Origin: Candidatus Aenigmatarchaeota archaeon
GTDB taxonomy: Archaea; Aenigmatarchaeota; Aenigmatarchaeia; QMZP01; QMZT01
Assembly (NCBI GenBank): GCA_026397315.1
Contig: JAPLVC010000001.1
Location: 32,001 to 96,000, forward strand
DNA length: 64,000 nucleotides
Reading direction: 5' to 3'
The position numbers were made by a program, and so were the translations under genes. The notes under the pieces were generated by a model. The model saw only the letters and a list, made by a program, of their open reading frames with translations. It had not been told where the DNA came from and searched no databases. Positions 21,004 to 59,706 of this stretch are shown here, one piece after another (the stretch's first letter is position 1; each line of letters opens with the position of its first letter).

Positions 21004-22167
21004 TTATGCTAGCAGCGGTATGCCCAGTTCCCTGTGGACAAGCGCGTGCACGTCCGGAATGTCTTTCATGTGGGAATGCGCGTCCAGCTTGCCCAGGATG
21101 TAAGGCGACTTGACTCCAGTGACGATTGTTATGACCTTTATCTTGTTCTTGAACGAGGGATCGATTCTCGCGCCCCAGATGACCTGAGCATCAGGATCCA
21201 GCTGTTTCGAAACGTATTCTCCTATCCTGCTCACTTCGTCGAGCCTCATGTCAGGTCCGCCGGTTATGTGGATTAACGCCCCGCTTCCGCCGTGGTAATC
21301 GACGTCTAACAACGGGTTGGACATGGCCCTTATGATGCATTCCTCGGCGCGCTCGTTCGAGCAGGCCTCGCCGAACCCTACGGTAGCTACGCCTCCCGAG
21401 TGCATTATAGCCTTCACGTCTGCGTAGTCCAGATTCACCAGCGACGGGGTCGATATCGTCTCGGTTATGCCCTTTATCATGCTGGCCACCAGGTCATCCG
21501 CCACTGAAAACGCTTGCTTCAGCGGCAGGTTGCCCGCTATCTTGAGCAGGCGGTCGTTCTCTATGGCTATGACCGTGTCGCAATACTGGCGCAGGTCGAA
21601 AAGGCCGTCTTCCGCCTTCCCCATGCGCGCGCCCTCGACCTTGAAAGGCATGGTCACGTTCGCTATAACAATAGCTCCGGCTTCCTTGGCTATCCTCGCC
21701 ACTACAGGTGCGGCTCCCGTTCCCGTTCCGCCGCCCATGCCGGCCACCAAAAACAACATGTCTATGCCTTCAAGCATCTTCTTGAGCTCGCGCTCGCTCT
21801 CTTCAGCGGCCTTCTTGCCCGTTGCCGGGTAACCGCCCGCACCAAGCCCACGAGTGACGTCTTTGCCTATGAGGAACTTCTCGTGTGCCCTCGAAGCCGT
21901 CAGATGCCTCGCGTCCGTGTTTACCGCTACCGTCTTCGCTCCAGTTATGCCTATGTCCGTCAATCTGCTTATCGTATTGCTGCCGCCGCCTCCGATGCCC
22001 ATGACCATTATCTTGGCTCCCATGAGCTCGAAGCCCAGCTCGTCTTTCACCCTTTGCTCATAGGAGGTGTCGGCCACGCCCTGGCCCGGTATCTTTACGG
22101 CTGCCTGGACTGGCGCCACGCTAGCGAGCGCGTCCGCTCCTACCTCCACATTCACTATCTCTCCCAT
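21004..22167 (-). CDS. ftsZ: Cell division protein FtsZ (FtsZ2-type paralog)
   Basis: 'GIGGGGSN', 'GMGGGTGTG', T7 loop 'NLDYAD'; RBS GGGGTGAGG. Confidence 0.97.
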   Translation of the reverse strand: MGEIVNVEVGADALASVAPVQAAVKIPGQGVADTSYEQRVKDELGFELMGAKIMVMGIGGGGSNTISRLTDIGITGAKTVAVNTDARHLTASRAHEKFLIGKDVTRGLGAGGYPATGKKAAEESERELKKMLEGIDMLFLVAGMGGGTGTGAAPVVARIAKEAGAIVIANVTMPFKVEGARMGKAEDGLFDLRQYCDTVIAIENDRLLKIAGNLPLKQAFSVADDLVASMIKGITETISTPSLVNLDYADVKAIMHSGGVATVGFGEACSNERAEECIIRAMSNPLLDVDYHGGSGALIHITGGPDMRLDEVSRIGEYVSKQLDPDAQVIWGARIDPSFKNKIKVITIVTGVKSPYILGKLDAHSHMKDIPDVHALVHRELGIPLLA

Positions 22168-22650
22168 ATGCCTCACCCCTTAATTCAAAGCATCCCGCCG
22201 CGAGACAACGATGCATTCACTGCATCATATATTTCCGGTTTGTTGTTTTCGAGCAGCGAAATGTATTTAAGTTCTTTTCTCAATTATTCTCAGAAAACTA
22301 GCTTATACTCAAGGGTGACACAAAAGAACCAGATTCAACGAATCCTCTTCGTCGCCAAACGAATTGGATCCGCATCGAGGCAACTTCGCCAAAAGTTGCC
22401 TGTTAATCCCCTATTTCTGATGTCGTTTCTAACAGTTTGAATAATTTACAGTAAATAGTTCCTTTTTTGCTATATAAGCTTTTCCCGCCCGTTTTGGACG
22501 AAAGGGGGATTTTTAGGCCCTTTTTACCGCCTTCCGGGAGGCTTTCTCTCATTAAGAATAGAGGCGACGTATATCGAATTTCGCCATAAGTAAGCTTTAT
22601 AAGTCTTCGAATTAATTACTTAGCAGAGATAACACATATGGAGGGTAAAT

Positions 22651-31684: not shown

Positions 31685-31695
31685 TTAAATAAAAT
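31685..31695 (+). repeat. Left direct repeat TTAAATAAAAT (candidate attL core)
   Basis: Identical 11-mer at 51011-51021; coincides with the composition boundary. Confidence 0.65.
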
Positions 31696-31769: not shown

Positions 31770-33014
31770 ATGAAAGAGGGAGACGAAATTTGGGCTAGAA
31801 TGGAAAAAATAAAAAATATGGACGTAAACGCAGAAAACATAAAGACTGTGGTTGAGTTCGACAAGTTGAATGAAATAAACGGACTAACGCCGGGAACAAG
31901 AGTCGGTCACCTAACAATGCTGAGGCATCTTCTGACATATTGTGGCGGCAAACCATTTACCGAGTTGACTGGCTCAGACATAAGGGAGTTCATGGGATTG
32001 CTGAAAGAGAGTAAGGTTGAAACGCAGGTTGATATGAGATTTAACCGTAATGTAGCAAAAAGGGGTGGAAAATTAGAGCAGGGCACCATGAACACATACA
32101 CGCAAAAGGTCAAAAGATTTTTCCGCTACCTCCACAATACCGGAAGAGACACCCCAAAAGTCATACGAGACGCAGACCTCAAGCAGAAACAGGTGGCATT
32201 CAAGCTAACCAGTGCAGACCTGCCCACCGAACAGGAAATACTGAATATGATAAATGCGACCGAAAGTCCACTCTATAAGGCGCTTTTGGCGGTCATGTAT
32301 GACACTGGTATGCGAATAGGGGACATACTTGACCTTAAGTTTAAAGACCTAATGGTGACCGAAAACGAGGTAAGGCTTCGATTTTACATAAGAAAGACGA
32401 AACAACACCTGCTTTACAGTCTTGGCAGTTCGGTAGGCTTTCTTATGAACTGGCACAACCTGCACCCCACCAAAGACCCAGAAAGCCCTCTTTTCTGCAC
32501 AACAGCGACAAACTGCCGTGGTAAGAGGATGTCGCACACAAACGCATACAACATGGTCAAAATGCTCGCAGAAAAGGCTAATATACACAAGAAAGTGTCC
32601 TGCCATACCTTCCGGCATTGTGCGACTGCGAGAGATAAGCCGCATTATAGCGATGAAGAGCTTCGCGTACTTCGTGGATGGACGAGGAATAGCACTATGC
32701 CTTTGAGATATGCGCCAGTCTCAAATGATGCCGTATTTCGAAAGAAACAGATTTTAGAGGGCAAGATTAAGGATGAATTGCAACCAAAAATCATAGAAGC
32801 CCGTAGCTGTCCGAGGTGCAAGAACACTGTCACGCCTGATTCCGCTTACTGTTGCGTGTGTGGTCAACTGCTATCGAAAAAGGTTATCGGTCTCAAGGAC
32901 ATGCTCGAAAACCCTCTCATTTATGAGACCATGAAATCCGAAATCGAAAGGCGGGAAGATTTGAGGCAAAAATACCAGCAACAACTCAATGAGCGGGTCA
33001 TGGCTTTTTCATGA
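31770..33014 (+). CDS. Tyrosine recombinase/integrase with C-terminal zinc ribbon (resembles SNJ2-like archaeal integrases)
   Basis: 'TGMRIGD', 'RKTK', 'HTFRH..T', 'LRGW...S.MPLRY', CPRC...CxxC. Confidence 0.92.
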   Translation: MKEGDEIWARMEKIKNMDVNAENIKTVVEFDKLNEINGLTPGTRVGHLTMLRHLLTYCGGKPFTELTGSDIREFMGLLKESKVETQVDMRFNRNVAKRGGKLEQGTMNTYTQKVKRFFRYLHNTGRDTPKVIRDADLKQKQVAFKLTSADLPTEQEILNMINATESPLYKALLAVMYDTGMRIGDILDLKFKDLMVTENEVRLRFYIRKTKQHLLYSLGSSVGFLMNWHNLHPTKDPESPLFCTTATNCRGKRMSHTNAYNMVKMLAEKANIHKKVSCHTFRHCATARDKPHYSDEELRVLRGWTRNSTMPLRYAPVSNDAVFRKKQILEGKIKDELQPKIIEARSCPRCKNTVTPDSAYCCVCGQLLSKKVIGLKDMLENPLIYETMKSEIERREDLRQKYQQQLNERVMAFS

Positions 33015-37964: not shown

Positions 37965-37990
37965 AAATCATTTTATGTTTCATATGATGA

Positions 37991-38316: not shown

Positions 38317-40086
38317 TTAGTTGAAAATTCTCATTTCTGGTTTCTTGTGCTTTGGATTTTTCATGGTTTCTATCAACTTTTCTCTTAATGCCGGTTTGTA
38401 AGCACAATTGATTAAATAATTTTTTGTAACGAATAGAACACTAACCGCATCGGACATGATATCGGAAATAATCTTTTTGGATTTTCCATCAAGATTACCC
38501 TCATAAACTATTGTTATAGAATCTGATTTAACTTCATCAATGTAGGTCTGATATATGATAAATTCTTTGGGTATACTCTTGACATTGGTTAAGGGGTATC
38601 GCCATTCTCCTATACTCTTACATTCAACCAATGATTCTATGCCGTTCTTTATCAGCATGTCCGGATTATTTTCAAAGAAACGAGCGATGTATGATTTATG
38701 GCATCTATCTGCAAGCTGACCCTGATACTTAATCGCATTGAGTTTAAGAAGCCGAAGCAATATTGCAACTTCTTTCTCAAAATCGCTTCTGTATTGATTT
38801 AGAATTCCTGTTGAAGGTATAATCTTTTCAACCCTTTCCAAAACTGGGTCTTCTATTATCCTCGTGTTTTCAGAGAATTTGTTTACAATCCCGATTTTGA
38901 GTTTGTTATGTTCAGTTTCAAGCATAGATTTAAGCGTACTTATGGAATAAATTTCTGTCATCTTGATTACGTCACTAATACTCTTCGAATATAATTTTGA
39001 TAGTCGCTTAAGAATGCTAAATATTTCATCTTTATTTTCAGGAGGTACATCATATTCCAAAGTGAAATCTATTTCTGTATGAAGCGCTGAAAATCCTCTC
39101 TCAAACTTAATGTTATTTTCTTTAGTAAGAGCATGAAGGATATCTCTGACCTTCATTCTCACCAGACCGAACGCTATCTCTGAATCTAAAAATTTCGAGT
39201 TTATGTCGAGTTTAATATGCTTAAGAAAATCACAAAATATCAACAACGAAGCCTTCAAACTTTCGTGTTTTTTTAGGTCTATGAACCACAAAGGCGTCTT
39301 TTTTCTGTATATTTCAAGTATCTTCAAACCTCGGTCAGTTAAGGTGTACCATCTTCCTCTAACGCCCTCTATATCACTTGACGCAATAAGACCGAGGGAT
39401 TCGCACCAATCAAGGAGCGGTCTCATATTTCTACTCATATTAATTCGGTTTCTTTTGCTTATGGAAAAATCACTATAGAATTTTTCAATGGTAACCTTGT
39501 TCTTCTCTTTATATGCAGATACAGAACGCAATAATCTTTTTTCTGTCGAGCCCATGAGAACTGGGTCAGATTTTTTTGTCCCGCATTCTAAAGCAATTTG
39601 ATGTTCATGCAAACCAGCAACACTATTCAATAAACTAAGGATATACAAACACGGTCTTGAACGAATATCCAAATATTGACCACCAGATTGAATATCAAAT
39701 ACGTTGGTAATTTTCATTCGCATTAGTTTGTCGATAAATACAGATTCCTCGTTCTCATCATTTGGACATTCTTGGTCAAAGGTATACTTAGATAGCATCT
39801 TACCCGATTCTGTGCAAAAGTAGCGGAAAGGTCTGCCCTTTCTACTAATCAACCCCATATAAGAGGCTGTGAGCAAATGGTCCCTTGCCCTGCGCATTAT
39901 CCTATCTTTCATTTTTTCTTTTCTAAATTTGCTCAACTTTGATTCTGCGAGAACCTTTGCTATCTCCTTATCATTTGGGTATTTGCTTTTTTCATTCTCT
40001 TGGTAAACCGCATTAGATATTGTCCTAATCCTGAATATGTTATGGACTCTCGTAATTGGTTTCATGTATTCCTGTTTGCCAATCAT
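38317..40086 (-). CDS. Putative restriction endonuclease (wHTH-like N-terminal domains, C-terminal PD-(D/E)XK; type IIS-like layout)
   Basis: 'NPDMLI...LVECKS'; directly downstream of the MTase. Confidence 0.65.
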   Translation of the reverse strand: MIGKQEYMKPITRVHNIFRIRTISNAVYQENEKSKYPNDKEIAKVLAESKLSKFRKEKMKDRIMRRARDHLLTASYMGLISRKGRPFRYFCTESGKMLSKYTFDQECPNDENEESVFIDKLMRMKITNVFDIQSGGQYLDIRSRPCLYILSLLNSVAGLHEHQIALECGTKKSDPVLMGSTEKRLLRSVSAYKEKNKVTIEKFYSDFSISKRNRINMSRNMRPLLDWCESLGLIASSDIEGVRGRWYTLTDRGLKILEIYRKKTPLWFIDLKKHESLKASLLIFCDFLKHIKLDINSKFLDSEIAFGLVRMKVRDILHALTKENNIKFERGFSALHTEIDFTLEYDVPPENKDEIFSILKRLSKLYSKSISDVIKMTEIYSISTLKSMLETEHNKLKIGIVNKFSENTRIIEDPVLERVEKIIPSTGILNQYRSDFEKEVAILLRLLKLNAIKYQGQLADRCHKSYIARFFENNPDMLIKNGIESLVECKSIGEWRYPLTNVKSIPKEFIIYQTYIDEVKSDSITIVYEGNLDGKSKKIISDIMSDAVSVLFVTKNYLINCAYKPALREKLIETMKNPKHKKPEMRIFN

Positions 40087-40087
40087 A

Positions 40088-41365
40088 TCACACCTTCTGA
40101 AATATTACAATGCTTTCTCTCGAAATTGTCTCTCCAGTTGGAGTCTTCCAAGGTATCATTTTCATAGGTATTTTTCGGAAGAAACTATTAACATGTCTGA
40201 ACCCTGCCGCATTACCAAGCTCAACCGTGACCTTTTCCATGTCTAAAGATCTTTTTCTTATCATTCTGTCACCGACAACAACGCAGTAGTATGCTCCATC
40301 TTTAACTATTCGATAAACTTCCTCAAAAGTTTTCAGATAGTCAAAAAAGAAAGGTAAAGCATCTATCACTCTTTCTTCATCCGTTTTGGCAAGTTCATAT
40401 AATACATTTATTGTTGTTTTTGATGGTAACTCTTTTAGTCTGCCTACGACATCTTTATTGACCATTGAACCCAAAGCGTTCTTTTCGGCTTTATTCATCG
40501 AACCATGATTCATTTTTAGCCAAGCAACAGAAAGTTTTGACCATCTTGCGTAGCCTATGGTATTTTTCTCCTCTCCATATGGAGGTGAAGTTATAGAACA
40601 ATCGAATTCATTGTCCTTGAATGGGAGTTTTCTTGCATCATTTTTTGTGATTCTGACTGTGGGTATTCTTTTTAATCCAAGTTTTTCTATTTCTCTTACG
40701 AACTCGTTCATCATTTTCAGAGAGTCAAATGTGTTTTTGCTGAAAACCGCAAAAGTATTGGGTTTGAATTTTGACAATTCATCCGGCTGTAATATTCTAA
40801 TGAATCTGCTGGAACGATGGTCTATGTTCGACACATCGAACACTGTTTTTGAGAAAACTACCTTGAGAAAATCTTTTATATCATCATTTTTTACTTTGTT
40901 TATCTCATTCAAAATAAAATCCAACCGACAGGCAACGTCTTCCCTAAACCAATGTAGAAGATTGGGCAATATATCCTTCGGTGGTTCGATAAGTTTATTG
41001 GTTTTAAACCCGTCGTTAATGCCAGAAAGAAAATCTGTCATATTAAAATTTAACTTCCTGAATTCGATGGGTGTTGATTTTACTTTTGTGAGTAAAACAG
41101 CAAGAGGATTTATGTCATTACCAACCGAGTTTCTCCTCAGAAGCAAAGATTCGACAAGTACCGTACCACTACCACAAAAAGGGTCGAGAATAGTATCGTC
41201 TTCCTTAGAATAGACTTTAATCAATCTATTTGCTATTTGTGGTATCATCCTGGCTGGATACTTATGTATTCCATGAGTAAGATAACTCGTATCAGCTCCA
41301 GCAAAATCCCAATCTTCTATCTTTTTCCCACTCAATGTAGTTTGTGCGGTTTTCCTATTCTTCAT
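40088..41365 (-). CDS. DNA methyltransferase, probably N4-cytosine
   Basis: 'HKYPARMIP', motif I 'DPFCGSGT', motif IV 'TSPPY'. Confidence 0.9.
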   Translation of the reverse strand: MKNRKTAQTTLSGKKIEDWDFAGADTSYLTHGIHKYPARMIPQIANRLIKVYSKEDDTILDPFCGSGTVLVESLLLRRNSVGNDINPLAVLLTKVKSTPIEFRKLNFNMTDFLSGINDGFKTNKLIEPPKDILPNLLHWFREDVACRLDFILNEINKVKNDDIKDFLKVVFSKTVFDVSNIDHRSSRFIRILQPDELSKFKPNTFAVFSKNTFDSLKMMNEFVREIEKLGLKRIPTVRITKNDARKLPFKDNEFDCSITSPPYGEEKNTIGYARWSKLSVAWLKMNHGSMNKAEKNALGSMVNKDVVGRLKELPSKTTINVLYELAKTDEERVIDALPFFFDYLKTFEEVYRIVKDGAYYCVVVGDRMIRKRSLDMEKVTVELGNAAGFRHVNSFFRKIPMKMIPWKTPTGETISRESIVIFQKV

Positions 41366-41638
41366 GAAATATTGTTATGTTAATTGCTTAAAAACCAAAT
41401 TTTACAGTACATGAATAACAATAAAATATTTGATTTTCAAATTTGACATTTTTCTTTTATACAAAAATGTTTAAACATATCTTTTTATAACGTACAGATA
41501 ACCCTAAAATATGCACGCAAGCTCTGAACTCAATGTGGACAAAAGTATTGTAGATTCTATAGCTGAAATCACAAAGAGAGTTATCAGAGAAGATTCTCTG
41601 GAAATAAGAACTTTACCTAAAAACAAAGGGATAGTGAA

Positions 41639-42118
41639 ATGAAGAACGTTGGTGACTACGGAGAAAAGATGGTTAGGGATATCCTAAGAAGAAAGGGATT
41701 TAACGCTAAAATCAAGGGAAAACGAACTCACGGTTATGATTTAGCCGTCAAAAAAAATGATAAGAAGACAGAAGTACAGGTTAAAACTATTCAAAAAGGG
41801 AAATTATTTCAGTTGACAGTAACGAATTTTCTTAAAATCGACATCATCGACGGAAAACAGAAGGTAAAAGGAAAAAATGATATCGGCTTGGATATTCCAT
41901 GGGTATTCGTGAAAAAAATTAAAAATGGTAATGAGTTTTTCATTCTTAGCAAATCGAACGTGCAGGATATCGTCTTGAGGAGCTATAGAGCAATGCTGAT
42001 AAAAAATAAGGGTTTTAGACCTCAAAATCATTACTCCTTTCATTGTACAATCGATGCAGACAAATTGACAAAATGGAAGAATAATTGGAAGCTTATAAAA
42101 AATAGCCTCCACCCGTAA
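41639..42118 (+). CDS. PD-(D/E)XK endonuclease
   Basis: 'GDYGE', 'GYDL', 'EVQVKT'. Confidence 0.75.
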   Translation: MKNVGDYGEKMVRDILRRKGFNAKIKGKRTHGYDLAVKKNDKKTEVQVKTIQKGKLFQLTVTNFLKIDIIDGKQKVKGKNDIGLDIPWVFVKKIKNGNEFFILSKSNVQDIVLRSYRAMLIKNKGFRPQNHYSFHCTIDADKLTKWKNNWKLIKNSLHP

Positions 42119-42180
42119 CGAGTAGTTCAAAACAGCAAGTATCTATGTATTAAAATAGAAAAATTATACATGATGATAGA

Positions 42181-43278
42181 ATGAAAACAGTAAAGTTAAT
42201 ACACACATCAGATTTACACCTTGGGAAAACATTCAGTGAGCTAGGGGATGAGTCAAAGCTCCATAGAAATGATTGTCAAAACGTGTTTTCAAACATTATT
42301 GACTTGTGCATAAAAGAAAAGGTAAATGCACTGCTTATTGCTGGTGACCTGTTTGATAGTCCAGAACCTAATAAATCGCTAGTAAAATTTGTTATCGGAG
42401 AATTCGAAAGACTAAAAAACGAGAAAATTAGCGTTTTTATCTCATCCGGTAACCATGATCCATACAAAAAGGGGAGCGTCTGGCTTGAGCATAGATTTCC
42501 ATCGAATGTAATAGTTTTCAGTTCTGTCGATATGGAAGCCAAGGAGCTTGATGGAATAACAATATACGGGTTAGCTTATACAAACGATGCAAAAGAGCCG
42601 ATGAAGAACTTTGAGGCTGAAGATTCCGATAACTTCAAGGTTGGTTTGGTTCATGGCTCTACGACGGATATCAATTGGAATGAAGAGCCTGAAGCCGGAT
42701 ATAGGAGAATAACAAAAACTGACGTGGACAACTGCAAACTAGACTATGTCGCACTCGGTCATTTTCATGACATTATAGAAATCAAAAGCAAAACGAGGTG
42801 TTTCTATTCAGGCTCACCAGAGCCATTATCATTCAAAAACAAAGGAGATTCTTGTGTTCTATTGGTTACCCATGTAGATGGTAAAACTGTCGTTAAACCC
42901 ATAAAAACTAACATCAAGACATTCGAAACTTTGGAGATAGACTGCACAAATATGGAGTCAGACTCTGACATAAGAAAAATTCTTGAGAAAAATTCTGGTG
43001 AAAACAAGATTTTAAGACTAGTAATAACGGGCAGTCCATCTCTTGACTTGAATCTGGATAAAGAATTTCTTAAAAAGGAATTTGAGTCCAAGTACTTTTG
43101 CCTAAAAGTTGTTGATAATGTTCATTTACCTGAGAATCTAACCGAAGATGAGACAATCAGAGGACACTTCATCAGATTGGTTAAATCGGAAATAGATAAA
43201 GAGAAAGACTCTGAAAAGAAAAAAAGGCTTGAAAATGCTCTCAGACTGGGCGTAGGCTATCTGGATAAAAAACTGTGA
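42181..43278 (+). CDS. Mre11/SbcD (YhaO-like) metallophosphoesterase nuclease
   Basis: DLHLG, AGDLFD, GNHD, HG, ALGHFH, YSGSPE. Confidence 0.92.
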   Translation: MKTVKLIHTSDLHLGKTFSELGDESKLHRNDCQNVFSNIIDLCIKEKVNALLIAGDLFDSPEPNKSLVKFVIGEFERLKNEKISVFISSGNHDPYKKGSVWLEHRFPSNVIVFSSVDMEAKELDGITIYGLAYTNDAKEPMKNFEAEDSDNFKVGLVHGSTTDINWNEEPEAGYRRITKTDVDNCKLDYVALGHFHDIIEIKSKTRCFYSGSPEPLSFKNKGDSCVLLVTHVDGKTVVKPIKTNIKTFETLEIDCTNMESDSDIRKILEKNSGENKILRLVITGSPSLDLNLDKEFLKKEFESKYFCLKVVDNVHLPENLTEDETIRGHFIRLVKSEIDKEKDSEKKKRLENALRLGVGYLDKKL

Positions 43279-43282
43279 ATGT

Positions 43283-45004
43283 ATGGTTCAACTACTAAGG
43301 CTCGATGTTGAAGGATTTGGGAAGTTCGATAGACACAAAACCATCAATTTTGAAAACGGCATAAATTTTATTACAGGACTAAACGAGACTGGCAAGAGCA
43401 CCATTCTTGAAGCAATTATGGCATCTATTTTCAAATACACCAGAGGTCAAATCGAACAGTTTCTATGCTGGAAAAATAATGATGTGTGCCGAACTGCCCT
43501 TACGTACAAGACAGAAAAAGGCGAAACATTCAAGATAACTTCGGACTACAAGTCTGGGAGAAGAAGACTTGACAAAATAAAGAAAGGCAATTCTGAAGAA
43601 ATAGCGACTCTGGACAAAACAATCGAGCCTTTCATAAAGAAACACTTCGGTTTTGATGACAAGAAAGTATTCGAGAATACCGCCTTCATAAGACAGTCTC
43701 AAATGGCTATCTTAGATGATAATTCTGTTAGAAATAAGATTAAGGACATGATTGAAGAGGTATTTGCCGGCAGAGCTGAGGCATCGGCAACAAAGGCGCT
43801 CGCAAAAATAAGAAAGATAGCAAAAGATGCGACAAAGGAAACAGAGGTTCTTGAAGCGGAACAACACGAGCTAAAGAAAAATCTCAGGTCGGCGGAGGAT
43901 AAAAGAGAATCTGTTTCTAGAGACAGCGGAGAGTTTGAGAAGGTAGACAAACAACTCAATGAGAAGAGCAAGGAACTTGAAAAACAACAGAAAAACAAGA
44001 AACTCTTCGATGAAAAAGAAAAACTACTGAAGGAAAAGGAACATCTGGACGAACAGATGACAAAGGTCGATGAGTTGTTAGAAACGCTTTCTGAGGGAAA
44101 AGAACCCCAGAGAGAACAACCTTCCAACAAGAAAACAACCAGTGTCATTTTAATGGTCATAGGTGGTTTGCTCTCGATTACTGTAATAGGAGCAATAATA
44201 GGCATTCCGTTGATAATCTGGGGAATTATGAAATTAAGAAAGAAAGAAGTAGCGATTAAACCGATAAAAAGTGACGACGAAAAAATATCCAAATACAGAA
44301 AGGAAAAGAAGGAAATCCTCAACAAAAAAGCGGTCATTGAAACGAGACTAGAAGAGTATAGTCTAGTAAATTTTAATATAAATGATTTCGACGAACTTGA
44401 GACTCTTAAAAAAGATGTGGACTCGCTGAAGGAGAAAAAAACAGAACTAAAGACTAGCATCAAAACCACGACCTCTCTTGTAGAGAGTCCTGAAGATGTA
44501 AGAGAAATACTAGATGCGAATAAAGAAAAGCGACTCGGTTTTATTATGAAAATCGAGGAGCACGAACTAGCAGCAAAATTCTTGGAGATGGCTGAATCAG
44601 AAGTACATCACAAATTAACTCCAGCCATTGAGAAAAATTCCAAACCCATTTTAAAGAAAATAACGAACGAGAGGTACTCCGATTTAAGGGTGGAGGAGGA
44701 TACCCTCGATATCAAAATCAAGGCTCCCGAAATTAAAGATTATGTTGACGTGTTCTTTCTTAGTCAAGGCGCAAGAGACCAGTTATATTTCGTGTTAAGA
44801 GTAGTAATGTCAGATTTGCTTGGAGGAGAAGCAAACATACCTCTCATACTTGACGACCCTTTCCATAACTTTGACGACCCGAGACTAAGGAATACAATCG
44901 ACACTCTAAAACAAATCGCTAAAAACAAACAAATAATTTTGATTTCCCATAGACCTTATCATCATGAATTCAAAACTGTTTGCGATAATGTTGTTGAGTT
45001 ATGA
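43283..45004 (+). CDS. Rad50/SbcC-like SMC ATPase (YhaN-like) with central TM hairpin
   Basis: Walker A 'GLNETGKST', signature 'LSQG', Walker B 'LILDDPF', H-loop 'ISH'; hydrophobic 'VILMVIGGLLSITVIGAIIGIPLIIWGI' at the coiled-coil apex. Confidence 0.88.
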   Translation: MVQLLRLDVEGFGKFDRHKTINFENGINFITGLNETGKSTILEAIMASIFKYTRGQIEQFLCWKNNDVCRTALTYKTEKGETFKITSDYKSGRRRLDKIKKGNSEEIATLDKTIEPFIKKHFGFDDKKVFENTAFIRQSQMAILDDNSVRNKIKDMIEEVFAGRAEASATKALAKIRKIAKDATKETEVLEAEQHELKKNLRSAEDKRESVSRDSGEFEKVDKQLNEKSKELEKQQKNKKLFDEKEKLLKEKEHLDEQMTKVDELLETLSEGKEPQREQPSNKKTTSVILMVIGGLLSITVIGAIIGIPLIIWGIMKLRKKEVAIKPIKSDDEKISKYRKEKKEILNKKAVIETRLEEYSLVNFNINDFDELETLKKDVDSLKEKKTELKTSIKTTTSLVESPEDVREILDANKEKRLGFIMKIEEHELAAKFLEMAESEVHHKLTPAIEKNSKPILKKITNERYSDLRVEEDTLDIKIKAPEIKDYVDVFFLSQGARDQLYFVLRVVMSDLLGGEANIPLILDDPFHNFDDPRLRNTIDTLKQIAKNKQIILISHRPYHHEFKTVCDNVVEL

Positions 45005-46386
45005 AAAAATTTGATTTGAACATCGAGAAGGTACTTGAAGATTGGGAAGTTTTTCACGCGTTGAGGGAAGTTATAGCCAATGCGATTGACGAACAACTGC
45101 TGACAAAAACGAAGGAAATTCAAATTTTGAAGGATAAACATAATAAATGGCACATACGAGATTTTGGAAGAGGGCTAAAATACGAGCATCTAACACAGAA
45201 TGAATGTGAGGAGAAGTTAAAACATCCAGAGTTAGTTATCGGAAAGTTTGGCGTTGGCTTAAAGGACGCTCTGGCTACGTTCGAGAGGAGAAAAATCAAA
45301 GTCATAATAAAATCGAGACATGACGACATAACTCTTGGAATGTCTTCAAAGCACGGATTTGAAGATATGTTGACCTTACATGCGTTTATCTCGGAGCCCT
45401 CGGACAAAAATTTAATAGGAACGGAGTTTATTTTTGAGGGAGTAAAGGACAAAGACATAGAACTAGCAAAGGAGTTCTTTTTAAAATTCTCTGAGGAAAC
45501 CTTATTGGAAGATACGCCGCTTGGACAAGTCCTTAGAAAAGGTAAATCCAAAGCCAAAATATTCATTAATGGTTTAAGAGTTGCTGAAGAAGAAAATTTC
45601 CTATTTTCTTATAACATAACTTCCCTGACCAAAGCCATGAGAAAGGCACTAAACAGGGAAAGAACCCATGTTGGTAGAACAGCATATACGGATAGAATAA
45701 AGTCTATCCTTCTAGAGTGTAAGAAAAAAGAGGTTGCTGAATTATTGGTCGACGATTTGGACAACTTTGAAACGGGAAATTTGCACGACGAATTAGCTTG
45801 GGTTGATGTTTCTGCTCATGCCTGTAAACTGTTAAACGCTGCAGAGAAGGTAGTGTTTTTAACCTCATCTGAATTGATTCGAGCCAAGGATATGGTAGAT
45901 AGGGCTAAGAATGATGGCTTTGACATTGTAATGGTTCCCGAAAACGTAAAACAGAAGATAAGGGGAATTAAAGACCTTGAGGGGAATGTGATAAGAGACC
46001 TGGAAGAATACAGAGCAGAGTGGAATGAAAGTTTTGAATTCAAATTTGTCAAAGAAAAAGAGTTAACAAAACAGGAAAGAGAAGTGTTTTCTAAAACAGA
46101 TTTGATACTAAAGCTAATTGGCGGGAGACCAAAAAACGTAAAAGATATATTAATTTCCGAGACAATGAGACTAGAAACTATGGGTTATAGCGAAGCAGTT
46201 GGATTATGGGAAGCGGATAACCAACGAATAATTATTAAAAGGGAACAGCTTAGAAACTTAAGACCGTACGCAGGAACGCTTTTACATGAAGTAGCGCATG
46301 CAATAAGTGGCGCGTCTGATATTTCCAGAGAATTTGAAAATGAACTAACTAAAGTTATAGGCATTGTTTCATCAGAAAAACTATGA
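45001..46386 (+). CDS. GHKL ATPase (MPN635-like N-terminus) with C-terminal HEXXH motif
   Basis: 'REVIANAIDE', 'DFGRG', 'GKFGVG', 'GT'; C-terminal 'LLHEVAH...EFE'. Confidence 0.75.
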   Translation: MKKFDLNIEKVLEDWEVFHALREVIANAIDEQLLTKTKEIQILKDKHNKWHIRDFGRGLKYEHLTQNECEEKLKHPELVIGKFGVGLKDALATFERRKIKVIIKSRHDDITLGMSSKHGFEDMLTLHAFISEPSDKNLIGTEFIFEGVKDKDIELAKEFFLKFSEETLLEDTPLGQVLRKGKSKAKIFINGLRVAEEENFLFSYNITSLTKAMRKALNRERTHVGRTAYTDRIKSILLECKKKEVAELLVDDLDNFETGNLHDELAWVDVSAHACKLLNAAEKVVFLTSSELIRAKDMVDRAKNDGFDIVMVPENVKQKIRGIKDLEGNVIRDLEEYRAEWNESFEFKFVKEKELTKQEREVFSKTDLILKLIGGRPKNVKDILISETMRLETMGYSEAVGLWEADNQRIIIKREQLRNLRPYAGTLLHEVAHAISGASDISREFENELTKVIGIVSSEKL

Positions 46387-46478
46387 CATCAAACTTTGAT
46401 TATTTATTTTCGGAATATATCTTTACCTAATAAGCCTGCTAAACGACCTTTTCATTAAGGAGAAAAACACAAAAAGAA

Positions 46479-46817
46479 CTACTTTTTGCCAATAATTATG
46501 TTCAATCTATACTGCTTATCTATTTTCGGGTCAACCTTGAAATCCCACATTATTGCGGAATCCTTGCCTGCTTTGAACGATTCTACGATGTTATCAGCAA
46601 TTTCCTTATTGACTAAATCCTTACTTTTTGCCGTGAAGTTCAGCAAAATCCCCGTTGCATTTCTTTTGATTTTTGTTAGCTCTTTCATAGCCGCTTGTTC
46701 AATATCATCACTTTCGATTATCACCTGTGAGATGGAATTTGCTGACGATAATAAAGTCATTAAGTCTGCCTTATCGAACCTCTTTCCTAAAATCTCATCT
46801 TTTATTATCCTATCCAT
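46479..46817 (-). CDS. Stand-alone FtsZ C-terminal (T7 loop + C-terminal fold) domain protein
   Basis: Colinear by eye with the host FtsZ C-terminal half: RFDKAD~NLDFAD, ESD~ESD, ATGILLNF~ATGALINV, AIMW...DP~IIWG...DP, IIIGKK~IITGVK. Confidence 0.7.
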   Translation of the reverse strand: MDRIIKDEILGKRFDKADLMTLLSSANSISQVIIESDDIEQAAMKELTKIKRNATGILLNFTAKSKDLVNKEIADNIVESFKAGKDSAIMWDFKVDPKIDKQYRLNIIIGKK

Positions 46818-46948
46818 ATTTACCGCCCCCTTAATTATTTAGTAAAGCGAAATATATTGCATACTTTTTGATACCTATTTTAGCTAAAGGGGTAAGCAAA
46901 ACGACCCTTTTATTAGGGAGAAAATAGGCTTTTTGCTAAATCTCAGTT

Positions 46949-47464
46949 TTATTTTATCCTATCAGTATGTTCATGTACAATTTTCCTTCGCTTCGTATTT
47001 ATCTTCTCTTTATTCTTATGGTAATAATCAAGATGATATTTTCGATACCATTCTTTGTACCTTTCCTTATATTTTTTGTCCCGAGCCTTTACATAAGGTC
47101 TTTTTGCGTATTCCTTTCTGTATTGCTTTATTTTCTCCGTGTTCTCAGGTTTCGAAACGTACTCTTTGAAGCGGACTTTTTGGCGTTCTTTGTGTTCTTT
47201 ATTGTATTTTTGATGATACTTCTGGTACCATTCATTCTTTTCTTGTTTCCGCTTCTTGTCGGCTTTCCTAAATTTAGGACTTCGGACATATTTTTTGTTA
47301 TATTTCTTCCTTTTCTCCTTGTTTTCAGTATTTGAAAGATAAGCCTTCAGATATGCTTTCTTCTTTTCTTTGTTTTTCTGATAGTATTGTTTCATATGAG
47401 TAAGTAATCTTTCTTTGTTTCGCAGATAATATTGACGATTGTATTCAGTTAAATCTTTAGGCAT
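46949..47464 (-). CDS. Lys/Tyr/Arg-rich low-complexity helical repeat protein
   Basis: Repeated 'Y[YH]..NKE' units; no catalytic domain seen. Confidence 0.55.
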   Translation of the reverse strand: MPKDLTEYNRQYYLRNKERLLTHMKQYYQKNKEKKKAYLKAYLSNTENKEKRKKYNKKYVRSPKFRKADKKRKQEKNEWYQKYHQKYNKEHKERQKVRFKEYVSKPENTEKIKQYRKEYAKRPYVKARDKKYKERYKEWYRKYHLDYYHKNKEKINTKRRKIVHEHTDRIK

Positions 47465-47470
47465 ATTTTC

Positions 47471-48106
47471 TCAACCCATCTTTCTCCCAACAGGAACTCC
47501 TAACAAATGTAAAGCCCTTGCTGTCAGCGAATCTGTATAAATGACATAAATCCTTCTATCTTTTCTGATTGGAAATTTCTTTTTGAACACTTTTTGGAGT
47601 TTCCTTCCCAACCTATTCAGTTCGAAAGAGTCTGCACTCCATATTTTTGCCATGTTCAGTTTATTGTGTATATGTCCGTGGTCATGGGTATAGTTAACAA
47701 TGAAGTCCAAATCTTCGGATTTCCTCAACGGAAGCCACCTACACGATTTCAACATTTTGTAAACAGTGGGAGACATCGTCTCGTTTGCATAATAGCCAAC
47801 AGAGGATGGGCTTAATTTCATGTCTTTAGCGATTTGAATTATTCTTCCTCCCCTTTGCCTTGCTTTCATAATTTCAGGATATTTAATTACCCTTTCTCTT
47901 GTCATTAGTGAGTACGTTTCGAGTAAATCCTCAACCGAAACAGCTATGTTATCACCATTTTCCATAGTTTTGAGGCTTTTTGGGATTCTTTTAGGCTTAT
48001 TGAATCTACTTTCCCAGAAACATTGTCTTGAACAATATCGGGAACTTTTTCTATATACAATAATATGTTTTCCACAAGTTGAACATTTAATGATGCGACG
48101 TGGCAT
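47471..48106 (-). CDS. Zn-finger + HTH + degenerate LAGLIDADG-like domain protein
   Basis: CSTC...CSRQC, HTH 'IQIAKDMKLSPSSVGYY', 'FIVNYTHDHGHI' resembling a LAGLIDADG helix. Confidence 0.5.
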   Translation of the reverse strand: MPRRIIKCSTCGKHIIVYRKSSRYCSRQCFWESRFNKPKRIPKSLKTMENGDNIAVSVEDLLETYSLMTRERVIKYPEIMKARQRGGRIIQIAKDMKLSPSSVGYYANETMSPTVYKMLKSCRWLPLRKSEDLDFIVNYTHDHGHIHNKLNMAKIWSADSFELNRLGRKLQKVFKKKFPIRKDRRIYVIYTDSLTARALHLLGVPVGRKMG

Positions 48107-48175
48107 ATTTGAGAATTTGAACTTGGATATAAATGGCTATGTTTAAACGAATGTTTAAACTTTTTGTTCCGATAG

Positions 48176-48420
48176 GATTGCAATCACATTATTGCTATGG
48201 GATTGCGTAGATTGCAATTGGAACATTATTGCAATCGGATTGGTGCAACATTGCATATCAGCAGATTGCACCTTCGGAAAAATATTTGTAGTAGGTATCT
48301 ATCTTTATAGAGTAGCATATTGAGGGATTGCAGTACATTGCTATTGGGGATTGCAATTGCACCATTATTATTGGAGGATTGTTGTTATAGCAATAATGTA
48401 TTGCAATGGTGGCGCAATAA
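48176..48420. repeat. Non-coding array of ATTGC/GCAAT short motifs
   Basis: About 12 ATTGC on + plus several GCAAT, including palindromes GATTGCAATC and ATTGCAAT, in ~250 bp. Confidence 0.7.
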
Positions 48421-48428
48421 TAATCTTA

Positions 48429-49199
48429 TTATTTTGTGTTGTATCCTATGCCCTCTATATCATTTCTGCCAACAGAATTAGTGATTTCAGAACATTGAGT
48501 AGAATGGATTTCTGCACCATCCAGGTCTTCTTCTGAGGGAATATCGAGGGTATTTATATTCTGAGATAATACTTCAAAGCTATCTTTGTTTACCACGCTT
48601 TCTTTACCGCTTGAATATTTGAGTCTAACAAAAAATCCTTTGAGGTCTACGCTACCAGTATTGAACAATCCCAAAGATAAAATCCCATCGGAAAAGGATG
48701 CTCTCTGTATCAGTATCGCAGCTTTTCCGCAAAACAAATTTTTCTCCTTCTGTGGTTCATAATAAATGTCAAAAAGGGAACCATAACAATACTTTGAATA
48801 AGGCGTCAAATCGCCAACAAGAGGTATATGACCTTCCCAATTAGACATCGGTACATGACAAGACATTTCATCTCCTACATGAAAATTTATTTCTGGCGTT
48901 GGGTTTTTCATGTCTGATACGACATATCTTACAATGCAGGTATCACCACTTTTGGTGAGGTCAATTTTAAATTTCACATACTTTTCAGAATTTCCAACTG
49001 TCGAATAAACAATTGAATCGGTACATGAAGTCATGTAGACTTGGCTTGTTTTTGCACACTCTTGGTCATCAGGAGAACAATCATAAGTTGCTTTGACAGG
49101 ACTAATGACACCGACATTACTCCCAGTCGTACAACCAGAAATTAAAACAACGCCAAATAACAAAACCGCTAGACTGCAATGAATTAATTTAGCCTTCAT
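48429..49199 (-). CDS. Putative lipoprotein / surface protein
   Basis: Lipobox-like 'VVLISGC'; paired Cys; beta-rich C-terminal domain. Confidence 0.65.
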   Translation of the reverse strand: MKAKLIHCSLAVLLFGVVLISGCTTGSNVGVISPVKATYDCSPDDQECAKTSQVYMTSCTDSIVYSTVGNSEKYVKFKIDLTKSGDTCIVRYVVSDMKNPTPEINFHVGDEMSCHVPMSNWEGHIPLVGDLTPYSKYCYGSLFDIYYEPQKEKNLFCGKAAILIQRASFSDGILSLGLFNTGSVDLKGFFVRLKYSSGKESVVNKDSFEVLSQNINTLDIPSEEDLDGAEIHSTQCSEITNSVGRNDIEGIGYNTK

Positions 49200-49252
49200 A
49201 TACTAATATAGTATCGAAGACTAATAAATCTACTACCTTTCTACGCTCTTTT

Positions 49253-49270
49253 AATAACTATGCAGTTATT
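49253..49270. promoter_or_regulatory. Inverted repeat AATAACT-N4-AGTTATT, candidate operator
   Basis: Perfect 7-4-7 dyad between the divergent lipoprotein and wHTH genes. Confidence 0.5.
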
Positions 49271-49292
49271 CCGTTCAAACTAAAAATATTTT

Positions 49293-49562
49293 ATGGTTAA
49301 TATTGATTGGGAACTATATAGCTGGCTCGTAAGAGGCAGTCAAAGAAAAGCAATAATTGAGGCTTTAGAAAAACCTAAGATTCCCAGCCAGATAAGGAAC
49401 GACACAAAGTTATCAATTGCTAACGTATCAAAAATACTCAAGTTGTTTGTTGATAATGGAATTGCAGAATGTCTTAATCCGAATACGAAAATGGGCAAGC
49501 TCTACAAATTGACTCCGAAAGGTCAAGCTTTAAGAGAGGAACTGATAAGAAAAGAAGCCTGA
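49293..49562 (+). CDS. Winged-helix transcriptional regulator (ArsR/MarR-like)
   Basis: 'RKAIIEAL..PKIPSQI...LSIANVSKILK...G...C.NP...YKLTPKG'. Confidence 0.85.
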   Translation: MVNIDWELYSWLVRGSQRKAIIEALEKPKIPSQIRNDTKLSIANVSKILKLFVDNGIAECLNPNTKMGKLYKLTPKGQALREELIRKEA

Positions 49563-49631
49563 ACGAGTTTGTCGAAGAAGGCATAGCGAAATATCCATTC
49601 TATATAAAAAAACAATAGATAAACAGATATT

Positions 49632-50708
49632 ATGTATTTCAGAGATAATAAAAAATCATGTAAAAGTATTTCTTTTGGTGATGGTCTCTATTTTCCTTAT
49701 TATGAATTTAGCAAGTTACAACAATGGTTGGAAGTTGGACAAAGAATAGAAAGGGTTTATAATTTGCATAGAGAACTATCAATCCTTTTAGATGGTTTAG
49801 ATTCAAAACATGGACCGATATTACAAAAAACGTATGATAAAACAACTGGATTCACATCAGCAACTGCTAAGCCAGTAAAACAATTTCTTCAAGATGAACA
49901 GATAAAATATTTATGCAGACTAATAGAAGAACTGTTTAACAAAGATTTAGAGTTGATTTCAAAGGCTGATATTAGAATTAGAGAAATGAGACCATTCAAA
50001 AATTTGATGGAAAATTTAAAGATTTACAAAGATGGAAATAATGTATCAAAGGAAAATGTTGAAAAATATTTTGACTTTATGATTTTAGATTCGTTGCGTC
50101 ATGATCTATTAGAATTATGGGATGATATTAGAAAATTTCTGGATGATAAAACAAATGAAATTATACTCCCTGAACCAACGATTGAGAATAGAGAATTTTA
50201 CTCGTATTTTCTTCAAAGTAGAGATTGTTATGTCGAGGCTAACGAAGAAATCGCATTAGCAGTAATTAGAAAAGCCGTTGAGGATATTCTAACCAGACTG
50301 TGGATTTTACATTTTGATAAATTAAATGATATTGATTTGAAGAACAGAAAGGAATTAGATAATCTTCCGGGATTTTTAAAGGGTAGACAAATATTATCGG
50401 AACAAGAGTTTAGAGAAGCTCAACCATTTGTAAAATATGGAAATGCAGGAATTCATATTTTAGGTGAAATTCCAAAGGAAAAATTAACGGAAAATGCAAG
50501 AAGAATGATTAATAATGGCATTAATTTTGTTAATAGTCTATCAAAAAAATACATCGAATTGATGAGAAAAAAGAATTACAGTAATATTGAATTTACCAAA
50601 ACAGGTTTTTCAATCAACATTGGGAAATTAGAAAATTATATCTGTAGCAAGACTTCTGACGATATTTTTAATAAAGAAGATATAGACGAATTTAGAGAAG
50701 AAGAATAG
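49632..50708 (+). CDS. Protein with C-terminal DUF4145/HEPN-like domain
   Basis: 'CY...ALAVIRKAVE...KYGNAGIH'. Confidence 0.6.
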   Translation: MYFRDNKKSCKSISFGDGLYFPYYEFSKLQQWLEVGQRIERVYNLHRELSILLDGLDSKHGPILQKTYDKTTGFTSATAKPVKQFLQDEQIKYLCRLIEELFNKDLELISKADIRIREMRPFKNLMENLKIYKDGNNVSKENVEKYFDFMILDSLRHDLLELWDDIRKFLDDKTNEIILPEPTIENREFYSYFLQSRDCYVEANEEIALAVIRKAVEDILTRLWILHFDKLNDIDLKNRKELDNLPGFLKGRQILSEQEFREAQPFVKYGNAGIHILGEIPKEKLTENARRMINNGINFVNSLSKKYIELMRKKNYSNIEFTKTGFSINIGKLENYICSKTSDDIFNKEDIDEFREEE

Positions 50709-50757
50709 TGGTTCGAAATTATTTCATTGAGAAGCATTAACTACAATGTGAGAATCT

Positions 50758-50904
50758 TTACTCAGGCACTTCCATCAAAACCAAGTCTCCATTAGGATAT
50801 TCCGACCAGTCAAGAACCTGACCCTTCTTCCATCCCTTGCGCCTGATTTTCTCGTATGGTATGCTTATAACGAAAGTCCCACTGATTTGTTGAAGTTTTG
50901 GCAT
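50758..50904 (-). CDS. AbrB/MazE/SpoVT-like DNA-binding protein (48 aa, not in ORF track)
   Basis: MPKLQQISGTFVISIPYEKIRRKGWKKGQVLDWSEYPNGDLVLMEVPE; RBS AGGTGA. Confidence 0.75.
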   Translation of the reverse strand: MPKLQQISGTFVISIPYEKIRRKGWKKGQVLDWSEYPNGDLVLMEVPE

Positions 50905-50983
50905 CTAATCACCTTTAGTTTATACCTATAAATAAACTATATGCAATATAAAGTTTTAAGGGTATAATTAATTAGGTGGCGCT

Positions 50984-50996
50984 AAAAAGCTTAACC
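50984..50996 (-). repeat. Right subterminal inverted repeat
   Basis: AAAAAGCTTAACC; its reverse complement matches 31708-31720 at 12/13. Confidence 0.55.
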
Positions 50997-51010
50997 TAGG
51001 ATACTGATTA

Positions 51011-51021
51011 TTAAATAAAAT
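51011..51021 (+). repeat. Right direct repeat TTAAATAAAAT (candidate attR core)
   Basis: Identical to 31685-31695; GC-richer host sequence resumes right after. Confidence 0.65.
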
Positions 51022-51036
51022 TAATTTTGCCTTTTA

Positions 51037-51804
51037 TCATACGCTCTCGCTCTTCTCGAAGAAATAAGCGCCCAGAAAAACCATGACCGCGGATATGCAC
51101 AAAAGCACGGCGAAATCCAGCGCGGCCGGGAACGTCGACTGGCCTATCAGGGAGGCGCGCATGCCGTCGATGCCATAGGTGAGCGGGTCGATGTAAGACA
51201 CGACCTTTATGAAAGGGGGCAGGTTGTCAATCGGGTAGAGCGCTCCTGAGAGGAAGAACATCGGGAAAATGACGAAGTTCATTATCAGGTTGAAACCCTG
51301 CATGTCTTTCATCTTGGATGCGAATATCAGGCCGAGGCCTATGAACGAAGTCGATATGAGGAACATGAAAACCACCGCCAGCGCTAGCGAAAACAGGCTG
51401 GTCACTGCGAAGCCGAGAACCATCGAGATTAGCAGGATCGCCATGCCCTGTATGAGCGAAGTGGTCGCTCCGCCGGCTATCCTGCCGAGAACGATCGAGA
51501 CGCGGCTCACGGGCGCTATCATTATTTCCTTGAGGAAGCCGAACTCCCTGTCCCAGAGGACTGATATGCCCGCGAACATCGAAGTGAATAGCATGCCCAT
51601 GCCCACTATGCCGGGCACGAGAAACGTGATATAGCCTACGCCGCCTTCCACACCGGGTATTGCCATTTTCGAGAATCCCATCCCGAGGAACGCCAGGAAA
51701 AGCAGCGGCATGGCCAGCATGCCTATTATCCTGGACTTGGCCCTGACAAACCTTTTCATCTCCCTCAGCCACAAAACGTAAATAGCGGTAAAGTTTATTA
51801 TCAT
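51037..51804 (-). CDS. ABC-2 transporter permease (DrrB-like)
   Basis: 'DREFGFLKEIMIAPVSR', 'FLSGALYP', 'PLTYGIDGMR'. Confidence 0.93.
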   Translation of the reverse strand: MIINFTAIYVLWLREMKRFVRAKSRIIGMLAMPLLFLAFLGMGFSKMAIPGVEGGVGYITFLVPGIVGMGMLFTSMFAGISVLWDREFGFLKEIMIAPVSRVSIVLGRIAGGATTSLIQGMAILLISMVLGFAVTSLFSLALAVVFMFLISTSFIGLGLIFASKMKDMQGFNLIMNFVIFPMFFLSGALYPIDNLPPFIKVVSYIDPLTYGIDGMRASLIGQSTFPAALDFAVLLCISAVMVFLGAYFFEKSESV

Positions 51805-51815
51805 GACAACAACCC

Positions 51816-58455: not shown

Positions 58456-58596
58456 CGTTTTTGCGCAATAAAATTCCGCAACTCTTGCCGCTTTTTCAAA
58501 GGCTGGAGTAAATAAAATTTAAATAGTTTATTCCCATTATTTTCTTATGAATATTGTTGAACTGATAATTATTCGAGTTTAATGGAGGGGTTTTGT

Positions 58597-59706
58597 ATGG
58601 GCGTAAGAAGTGTTGATGCTAAGGACGTAATAAAGGAAAGGGAGAGGAAACCGCATCCAGAGGTCGACGAGGAACTCAGGAAGATTCTCGAGTCCAAGAG
58701 GGCCGAGATCAAGGTCATCGGCGTCGGCGGCGCGGGAGGCAACACGATTTCCCGCATGGTGCAGGTAGGCATCATCGGCGCGGAGATGCTGGCCATGAAC
58801 ACTGACGCCCAGGACCTGCTTTACACTGATGCTGACACCAAGGTTCTCATCGGCAGGGAGCTTACCGGCGGCCTTGGATCGGGCGCTGACCCGAAGACGG
58901 GCGCGGAAGCCGCAAAAGAATCGAAGGAAGACATTAAGAAGGCGGTTGAAGGCGCAGACCTCGTATTCGTCACGTGCGGCCTTGGAGGCGGCACTGGAAC
59001 TGGAGCCGCACCCGTGATTGCGGACATCGCCAAGAAGAACGGCGCGCTTACGGTCGGCGTCGTAACGCTGCCTTTCACCATGGAAGGCAGGCAGAGAGCG
59101 AGGAACGCTCAGGAAGGCCTTGAAAACCTTCAGGCTGTTGCCGACACGATAATAATCATACCCAACGACAAGTTGCTGGAAATAGTCCCGGACGTCTCGA
59201 TAACGACCGCGTTCAAAGTCGCGGACGAGATTCTGGTAAACGCCGTGAAAGGCGTGACTGAGCTTGTCACGAAACCCGGTCTTGTAAACCTTGACTTCGC
59301 AGACGTGCGCGCTGTCATGGGCGCTGGCGGAGTAGCGATGATAGGCATGGGCGAGAGCGACACGGACAACCGAGCTATCGAATCGGTAGAGAAGTCGCTG
59401 AACAACCCGCTGCTGGATGTCGATATTGAAGGCGCGACGGGCGCCCTGATAAATGTCTGCGGCGGCGAGGACATCACGATAAAGGAATGCCAGGAGATTG
59501 TCGAGGCCGTCACGACTAAGCTTAACCCGGACGCCAAGATAATCTGGGGAGCGCAGATAGTCAAGGAGCTTGGCGACACCATCAGGTCGATGCTGATAAT
59601 CACGGGAGTGAAGACTCCGCATCTTTACGGCCCTTCGGAGAAGAAGATAACCAACGCCAAGCAGAAGGAAATAGAAAGGGTCCTGGGCATAGACTTCGTC
59701 GAGTAA
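58597..59706 (+). CDS. ftsZ: Cell division protein FtsZ (FtsZ1-type)
   Basis: 'GVGGAGGN', 'GLGGGTGTG', 'NLDFAD'; upstream of secE-spt5-rpl11. Confidence 0.97.
   Translation: MGVRSVDAKDVIKERERKPHPEVDEELRKILESKRAEIKVIGVGGAGGNTISRMVQVGIIGAEMLAMNTDAQDLLYTDADTKVLIGRELTGGLGSGADPKTGAEAAKESKEDIKKAVEGADLVFVTCGLGGGTGTGAAPVIADIAKKNGALTVGVVTLPFTMEGRQRARNAQEGLENLQAVADTIIIIPNDKLLEIVPDVSITTAFKVADEILVNAVKGVTELVTKPGLVNLDFADVRAVMGAGGVAMIGMGESDTDNRAIESVEKSLNNPLLDVDIEGATGALINVCGGEDITIKECQEIVEAVTTKLNPDAKIIWGAQIVKELGDTIRSMLIITGVKTPHLYGPSEKKITNAKQKEIERVLGIDFVE

Follow-up and report, generated by a model that had tools for sequence, protein, structure and literature searches.

A stand-alone gene resembling the FtsZ C-terminal domain on an integrative defence element of a DPANN archaeon

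Introduction

In FtsZ the contact surface towards the next subunit is made up of the T7 loop, S9 and the N-terminal loop of H10, and the protein's two domains are structurally independent (PMC5414002). In E. coli the FtsZ fragments that act dominant-negatively come from the head-to-tail interface, T7 included (bioRxiv 2022.01.04.474984), and a further study reports that division is blocked by bottom-face mutants and not by top-face ones (bioRxiv 2020.02.25.965095). Natural FtsZ inhibitors include MciZ, SulA, MinC-N and MipZ as well as the phage proteins Kil, Gp0.4, Hdi and Icd; these are small, are in some cases borne on mobile elements, and are not FtsZ homologs, and those that have been mapped structurally bind the bottom face. 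Isolated C-domains engineered by Oliva in 2004 and by Osawa and Erickson in 2005 reportedly fold and inhibit assembly. No natural FtsZ consisting of the C-domain only was described in the literature searched, many subscription papers lying outside that search.

The gene considered here lies in a 64,000-nucleotide stretch of DNA (the window) from a Candidatus Aenigmatarchaeota archaeon and encodes a 112-aa protein. This protein is like the archaeal FtsZ C-domain (PF12327, in TIGR00065 proteins) in the order of its elements, the Asp-x-x-Asp of T7, the S8 Gly and the S9 Trp, but it differs from archaeal FtsZ in having no GTP-binding domain, C-terminal tail/anchor peptide or most of H7, and from archaeal FtsZ_C in that the T7 Asn and Phe are replaced, the NPLL loop and S7 glycines are gone, and its score falls below the Pfam cut-off. 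With the engineered C-domains it has in common a bottom face and no usable top face, whereas it is natural, selected, about 24% rather than 100% identical to its candidate target, and located on a mobile element. Top-face mutants likewise offer no usable top face (Redick 2005 and Du 2018, via bioRxiv 2020.02.25.965095). Like the natural inhibitors, the 112-aa protein is small and could act on FtsZ assembly, but it copies the very face to which the mapped ones bind and would bind the opposite face. TubZRC and PhuZ also place a tubulin-superfamily domain on a mobile element, adjoining DNA-binding genes, but they require a full polymerising GTPase, and there is none on this element.

The host and the integrative element

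The host is a DPANN archaeon with a genome of 1.05 Mb (91% complete, about 52% GC) that encodes four intact full-length FtsZs, one FtsZ1-type and three FtsZ2-type, located at C1:100801, on C3 (two genes) and at C4:71568. Four FtsZ_C matches per genome were found in all five genomes of the genus, versus two to three in most of the phylum, among the matches listed. The 90% cluster of the FtsZ1 contains the Ca. Aenigmatarchaeota FtsZ MFH1237388.1. The candidate targets in the window are as follows.

58582..59706, plus strand: host FtsZ1 (TIGR00065, 433.6 bits), candidate target
21004..22176, minus strand: host FtsZ2-type protein, candidate target; two further FtsZ2-type genes are on C1 and C4

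The 112-aa gene sits in a 19.3-kb integrase-bearing defence element with 35% GC, against the roughly 52% of the host. The features of the element are these.

31685..31695, plus strand: attL core TTAAATAAAAT, 11 bp, just upstream of apt
31770..33014, plus strand: tyrosine integrase (Pfam Phage_integrase, E 5.7e-17), at the left end of the element
38317..41365, minus strand: type II methyltransferase (PADLOC MTase_II, E 1.9e-92) and putative restriction nuclease
41639..46386, plus strand: PD-(D/E)xK-like nuclease, metallophosphoesterase, SMC/Rad50-like ATPase and GHKL-HEXXH genes, co-oriented
46438..46466, plus strand: 29-nt direct repeat, downstream copy
46896..46924, plus strand: 29-nt direct repeat, upstream copy, 25 of 29 positions identical to the other copy
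46949..48106, minus strand: Zn-finger/HTH protein (211 aa) and Lys/Tyr-rich helical protein (171 aa), co-oriented, upstream of the 112-aa gene
51011..51021, plus strand: attR core TTAAATAAAAT, 11-bp direct repeat

The tyrosine recombinase, the terminal direct repeats and the empty site in relatives confirm the island as an archaeal integrative element, and thereby the mobile-element setting given in the initial annotation. In two congeners apt is joined straight to the ABC permease gene, which constitutes the empty site, and in one of them (G351) the repeat occurs once; another study's contig (run X2) connects position 31685 to 51037. The integration target is an AT-rich 11-mer just upstream of apt and not a tRNA, with imperfect inverted repeats internal to each end. 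In the closest congener, G350 (L055, after position 2691), the sequence on the far side of this att site picks up again at window position 53091; the ABC transporter and VIT-like genes at 51037-53090 are thus missing there, which makes the site a rearrangement hotspot. A second integrase island, at C6:6470-16000, adjoins a tRNA-like sequence and holds a paralog of the gene at 46949-47464 for the Lys/Tyr-rich protein, with 72% DNA identity over part of the length; a different small gene follows it there.

The nuclease of the 38317..41365 pair is designated a restriction enzyme on account of its adjacency to the methyltransferase. The SMC/Rad50-like ATPase has a hydrophobic mid-segment and is LmuB-like (E 4e-12), and the 41639-46386 cluster as a whole is a candidate undescribed defence system. 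It is convergent to the 112-aa gene and is not co-transcribed with it. The element further carries a membrane-anchored transglutaminase-like protein (36328-37362, plus strand; Pfam E 8e-9), and short repeated GATTGCAAT-type motifs occur at 48139-48420, 5' of the Zn-finger/HTH gene, with a related stretch on a contig of run X2.

The 29-nt repeat brackets the 112-aa gene and is present in the genome in two copies only, on which ground an integron-like cassette array was rejected. Its downstream copy, of which there is a weak trace in homolog contig L001 and none in L002, lies within a decayed duplicate of the upstream region (score 55, maximum of shuffles 45). The repeat is possibly a trace of cargo swapping beside the gene.

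A selected gene with two homologs

The 112-aa ORF is a real, selected protein-coding gene, given its two homologs, its dN/dS ratios and the conserved DNA upstream of it. The initial annotation had placed it correctly and had credited it with its own ribosome-binding and promoter-like sequences, and both a Shine-Dalgarno-like run and a TATA-like box are present.

46479..46817, minus strand: stand-alone FtsZ C-terminal-domain-like gene, 112 aa, ATG start
46818..46938, minus strand: upstream conserved region, the same upstream backbone in both homologs
46823-46830, minus strand: Shine-Dalgarno-like G-run upstream of the gene
46851-46858, minus strand: TATA-like box upstream of the gene

Two homologs of the protein (P0001) were found among 5.8 billion proteins, namely P0002 (88% identical) and P0003 (62%), each encoded on a metagenomic contig of about 570 nt (ENA ERZ27247851 and ERZ27248148). 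All three have the start region, length and stop position in common, save for three more T7-loop residues in P0003. The dN/dS ratio (Nei-Gojobori) is 0.15-0.18 in all three homolog pairs, with dS up to 1.46, and purifying selection on the gene is significant (Fisher p 1e-5 to 1e-11). No further homologs were found in a search of 1.84 billion representatives or in a profile search, in scans of metagenomes, genomes and viral contigs, in plasmids and phages, in scans with the upstream DNA pattern or the neighbour genes, or in 371 genomes of the phylum searched by profile, DNA and integrase; sequence searches of the PDB gave no match.

About 110 nt 5' of the gene are identical on homolog contig L001 and closely similar on L002, where the TATA-like box reads TTTATATT. 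Downstream DNA and neighbours differ among the homologs. Since the upstream DNA is common to all three and the downstream DNA diverges, the gene is to be grouped with the upstream backbone, apart from the defence cluster. A structured RNA upstream of the gene finds no support, its predicted fold not being significant (z -0.24). One Logan contig, possibly from the source sample, covers the whole gene without differences, and among the matches listed no RNA data set carries the gene. Neither a signal peptide nor a membrane segment is visible in the protein, and the suggestion that it might act in a partner cell finds no sign of secretion behind it.

Likeness to the FtsZ C-terminal domain

The protein covers the region from the end of H7 through T7/H8 and S7-H9-S8-H10-S9-S10. 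The alignment to the C-terminal halves of the host FtsZs, first made by eye, was reproduced by BLASTP against FtsZ1 (24% over 107 columns, pairwise E 0.003) and by an unbiased profile built from 30 archaeal FtsZ C-domains picked without reference to the 112-aa ORF. This profile gave 22.1 bits for P0003, 16.3 for P0001 and 13.2 for P0002; the highest score among about 3000 shuffles was 12.8, and reversed sequences did not exceed 2.1. When all 9,735 genomic reading frames are ranked, only the four FtsZs stand above the ORF (E 0.0045), and the frame below it has E 0.49. In Pfam, FtsZ_C ranks first for P0001 (E 0.011, 16.4 bits) and for P0003 (E 0.042, 14.6 bits), in both cases under the 27-bit gathering cut-off, and P0002 has no match. 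With the unbiased FtsZ set the probability given by hhalign is only 12.5% (E 0.002). The 89.5% obtained with a query-enriched FtsZ set, and the profile scores of 18-29 bits there, are inflated because the FtsZs in that set had been retrieved with the query. A blind search of the 371 phylum genomes with a three-homolog profile returned mostly C-terminal halves of full FtsZs, with FtsZ encoded at 14 of the 19 non-self loci fetched.

Identity to each host FtsZ is only about 20-25%, and the alignment does not separate an FtsZ1-type from an FtsZ2-type origin. By these comparisons the likeness to FtsZ_C exceeds chance but is remote. We regard it as likely that the ancestry and fold of the protein are those of the FtsZ C-domain. 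Its most fitting place is that of a truncated variant within the FtsZ superfamily; it is not itself an FtsZ and lies below the Pfam family cut-off.

Residues kept and lost

Residues were compared with a motif-selected set of 159 archaeal FtsZ C-domains. Two features of the gene are central.

46764..46781, minus strand: T7-loop remnant RFDKAD, both Asp kept, Asn replaced by Arg and Phe by Lys
46545..46547, minus strand: Trp91, equivalent to the S9 Trp (FtsZ1 W322), which is invariant in the archaeal FtsZs sampled

The T7 aspartates D15 and D18 correspond to D238 and D241 of FtsZ1 and are invariant in all three homologs, the remnant in P0003 being KLDKAD; their retention had been recorded before, but the accompanying losses had gone unnoticed. 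The T7 Asn, found in 100% of the 159 archaeal FtsZs, is R or K in all three homologs, so that the N-x-D-x-x-D pattern of FtsZ (TIGR00065) is absent, and the T7 Phe is K in all three. Three T7 residues are deleted in P0001 and P0002, while the T7 loop of P0003 is full-length. The S9 Trp is retained in all three homologs. Also kept are the Ala after the T7/H8 Asp, the ES that closes S7, the S8 Gly and the H10 Glu. Lost are the S7 glycines, in whose place there are bulky residues, the NPLL loop between H9 and S8, most of H7 and the whole tail: C-terminal linker and tail peptide are absent, the protein stopping two residues after S10. Where H10 begins, the hydrophobic residue of FtsZ (L272 in E. 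coli) aligns with a polar one here in either plausible register; L272E in E. coli FtsZ locks monomers (PMC12754632).

Within the three homologs the best conserved segments are S7 (10 of 11 positions invariant), S10 (13 of 16) and the N-terminal segment (9 of 12). The least conserved include the docking face, with two of nine positions invariant in the S8-H10 loop and five of 14 in the loop plus S9. Such variability, in what are effectively two independent sequences, hints that tight mimicry is not at work.

Structural models

Predicted elements of the protein comprise helices at residues 16-25, 39-50 and 71-81 and strands at 29-35, 56-63, 87-96 and 102-111. An ESM Atlas model (pLDDT 0.67) superimposes on FtsZ_C-bearing models with a TM of 0.75-0.76 over 106-109 residues and on unannotated bacterial proteins of 111-145 aa with a TM of 0.74-0.81. 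The latter belong to Atlas clusters, mostly from Bacteroidota, of the same size as the 112-aa protein and nearest to it in language-model features (0.90-0.93), one Campylobacterota cluster having 22% FtsZ_C; they differ in being bacterial, undescribed and without detectable sequence homology to it.

Two AlphaFold2 models show the expected order of helices and strands at low confidence (pLDDT 57 with 3 rows and 63 with 7 rows), the second being biased by design, its alignment having contained FtsZ rows. Both match folds of the IF3-C, SirA and Alba type with Z of 6-8, a level that the tool calls common. No FtsZ or tubulin chain appears among the Foldseek matches listed (PDB, VIA wide, Atlas and viral sets), the AlphaFold2 models being too weak for exclusion. 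A complex prediction for the FtsZ1 core with the 112-aa protein, FtsZ1 being the sole partner tried, gave a score of 0.01 and a mark of 0.32 and is uninformative either way.

Proposed action and alternative explanations

The GTP-binding N-domain with its GGGTGTG motif is absent from the ORF, as had been stated at the outset, and also from the frames upstream of it and from the island. There is no remnant of a GTPase domain upstream of the gene or elsewhere in the island, and the absence of a frameshifted N-domain upstream, together with purifying selection, speaks against the pseudogene that the initial annotation had named as a test of its proposal. A decaying fragment or an assembly artefact is accordingly very improbable. 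Many FtsZ_C-only calls turn out to be housekeeping ftsZ genes that are split or frameshifted, as in all three of the long-contig cases checked, but here a dN/dS of 0.15-0.18 persists over dS up to 1.5, start and stop are intact in three independent sequences, and the Logan contig agrees across the gene. A hybrid-profile search returned fragments of canonical FtsZ. On the metagenome contigs L088, L089 and L090 an archaeal ftsZ1 is called as adjacent N-half and C-half ORFs, probably through sequencing frameshifts.

The reading that we tentatively prefer is that the protein caps or sequesters host FtsZ mildly and probably without catalysis. The C-terminal half of an archaeal FtsZ would have been captured, would have diverged greatly under its own promoter, and would have been kept by the integrative defence element. 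Its T7/H8-S9-H10 face would presumably dock onto the GTP-bearing top face of one host FtsZ, either a monomer or a filament at its top end. As the 112-aa protein has no top face of its own, nothing could add above it; the bound protein would block further addition, and the pool or the length of polymer would fall. The outcome might be a mild, regulated delay of division benefiting the element or its defence cargo, and not lethal abortive infection. Since the T7 Asn is replaced, a weak non-catalytic cap or sequesterer is likelier than a GAP; the GAP-like activity once suggested is doubtful because this replacement occurs in all three homologs and the T7 loop of P0001 is shortened. A protein consisting of the C-domain only can moreover bind only the top (shrinking) end, which is the weak geometry for inhibition. 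Loss of the Asn, the variable docking face and this top-end-only binding together make a mild modulator or a decoy likelier than the potent abortive inhibitor proposed in the initial annotation, from which a stand-alone, probably FtsZ C-domain-derived gene survives and the mimicry proves overstated. The low identity to the host FtsZs also counts against a mimic, since one might expect a copy of a conserved target to stay close to it; the polar residue where H10 begins and the variable S8-H10 loop and S9 tell against this reading as well.

It is rather unlikely, though a serious competitor to a cap, that the domain has been repurposed, being either derived from FtsZ and bound to another partner (itself, an element protein or nucleic acid, via the conserved S7/S10/H7-remnant side) or an unrelated alpha/beta protein. 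The better conservation of S7, S10 and the N-terminal segment than of the docking face favours repurposing, as does the replacement by bulky residues of the S7 glycines that permit packing of H7 and the N-domain. The fold matches of the low-confidence AlphaFold2 models and the low unbiased hhalign probability are consistent with either form, but the retained T7 Asp pair and S9 Trp and the Atlas TM of 0.75 to FtsZ_C argue against both. An unrelated protein of the Alba/SirA/IF3-C type, whose likeness to FtsZ would be a coincidence of composition, is improbable taken separately: there is no Pfam match to Alba, TusA/SirA or IF3 up to E 10, and FtsZ_C is the top family for two members. The pI of 8.8 is typical of the AT-rich island and so does not point to DNA binding. 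The conserved S7/S10 side is also the side that faces the N-domain, and FtsZ domains can swap (PMC5414002), which would suit a split tubulin-like system in which the partner is a separately encoded, degenerate GTPase half. That arrangement has a slim chance of being correct: a profile of 41 N-domain sequences had no match across the 284 frames of the island (best E 0.73) and picked out only the four full FtsZs in the genome, which is 91% complete and in which a very degenerate half could escape, and Pfam Tubulin and Tubulin_2 revealed no separate N-half in island or genome beyond the four FtsZs.

A decoy or sensor, which would not have to bind FtsZ itself, is an unlikely alternative to the cap that we prefer. 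The protein would present an FtsZ bottom face as bait for inhibitors from viruses or competitors, either soaking them up or switching on the defence genes next to it. SulA, MciZ, MinC-N and MipZ all target the bottom face, which has been called a hotspot (bioRxiv 2024.03.31.587266), and Icd of phage P1 is predicted to bind T7-H8 and H10-S9 (PMC11897509); the island carries a restriction-modification pair and the SMC-like/nuclease/GHKL cluster, and loss of the catalytic Asn with a variable docking face would suit bait in an arms race. At about 24% identity, however, the protein reproduces the host face poorly, the gene is convergent to the defence cluster, its downstream neighbours vary among homologs, no effector is fused to it, and literature searches yielded no archaeal viral FtsZ inhibitor.

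Implications

It is quite possible, if short of probable, that mobile defence elements of archaea and bacteria have repeatedly captured a stand-alone rear half of FtsZ as an undescribed class of effector, acting on host FtsZ at its GTP (top) face, across from the side that the structurally mapped inhibitors bind, or serving as bait for viral division inhibitors, with this gene as the DPANN example; the weight of the case is limited by a three-member family and remote homology. Those natural inhibitors of FtsZ that have been characterised structurally are not related to it and attach to its growing-end face. A half-FtsZ occurring in nature, if true, would be an in vivo test of what only engineered fragments have done so far, and would bear on the idea that FtsZ originated by fusion of a GTPase with its activator. 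It would also provide a first handle on the manipulation of FtsZ-based division by mobile elements in DPANN archaea.
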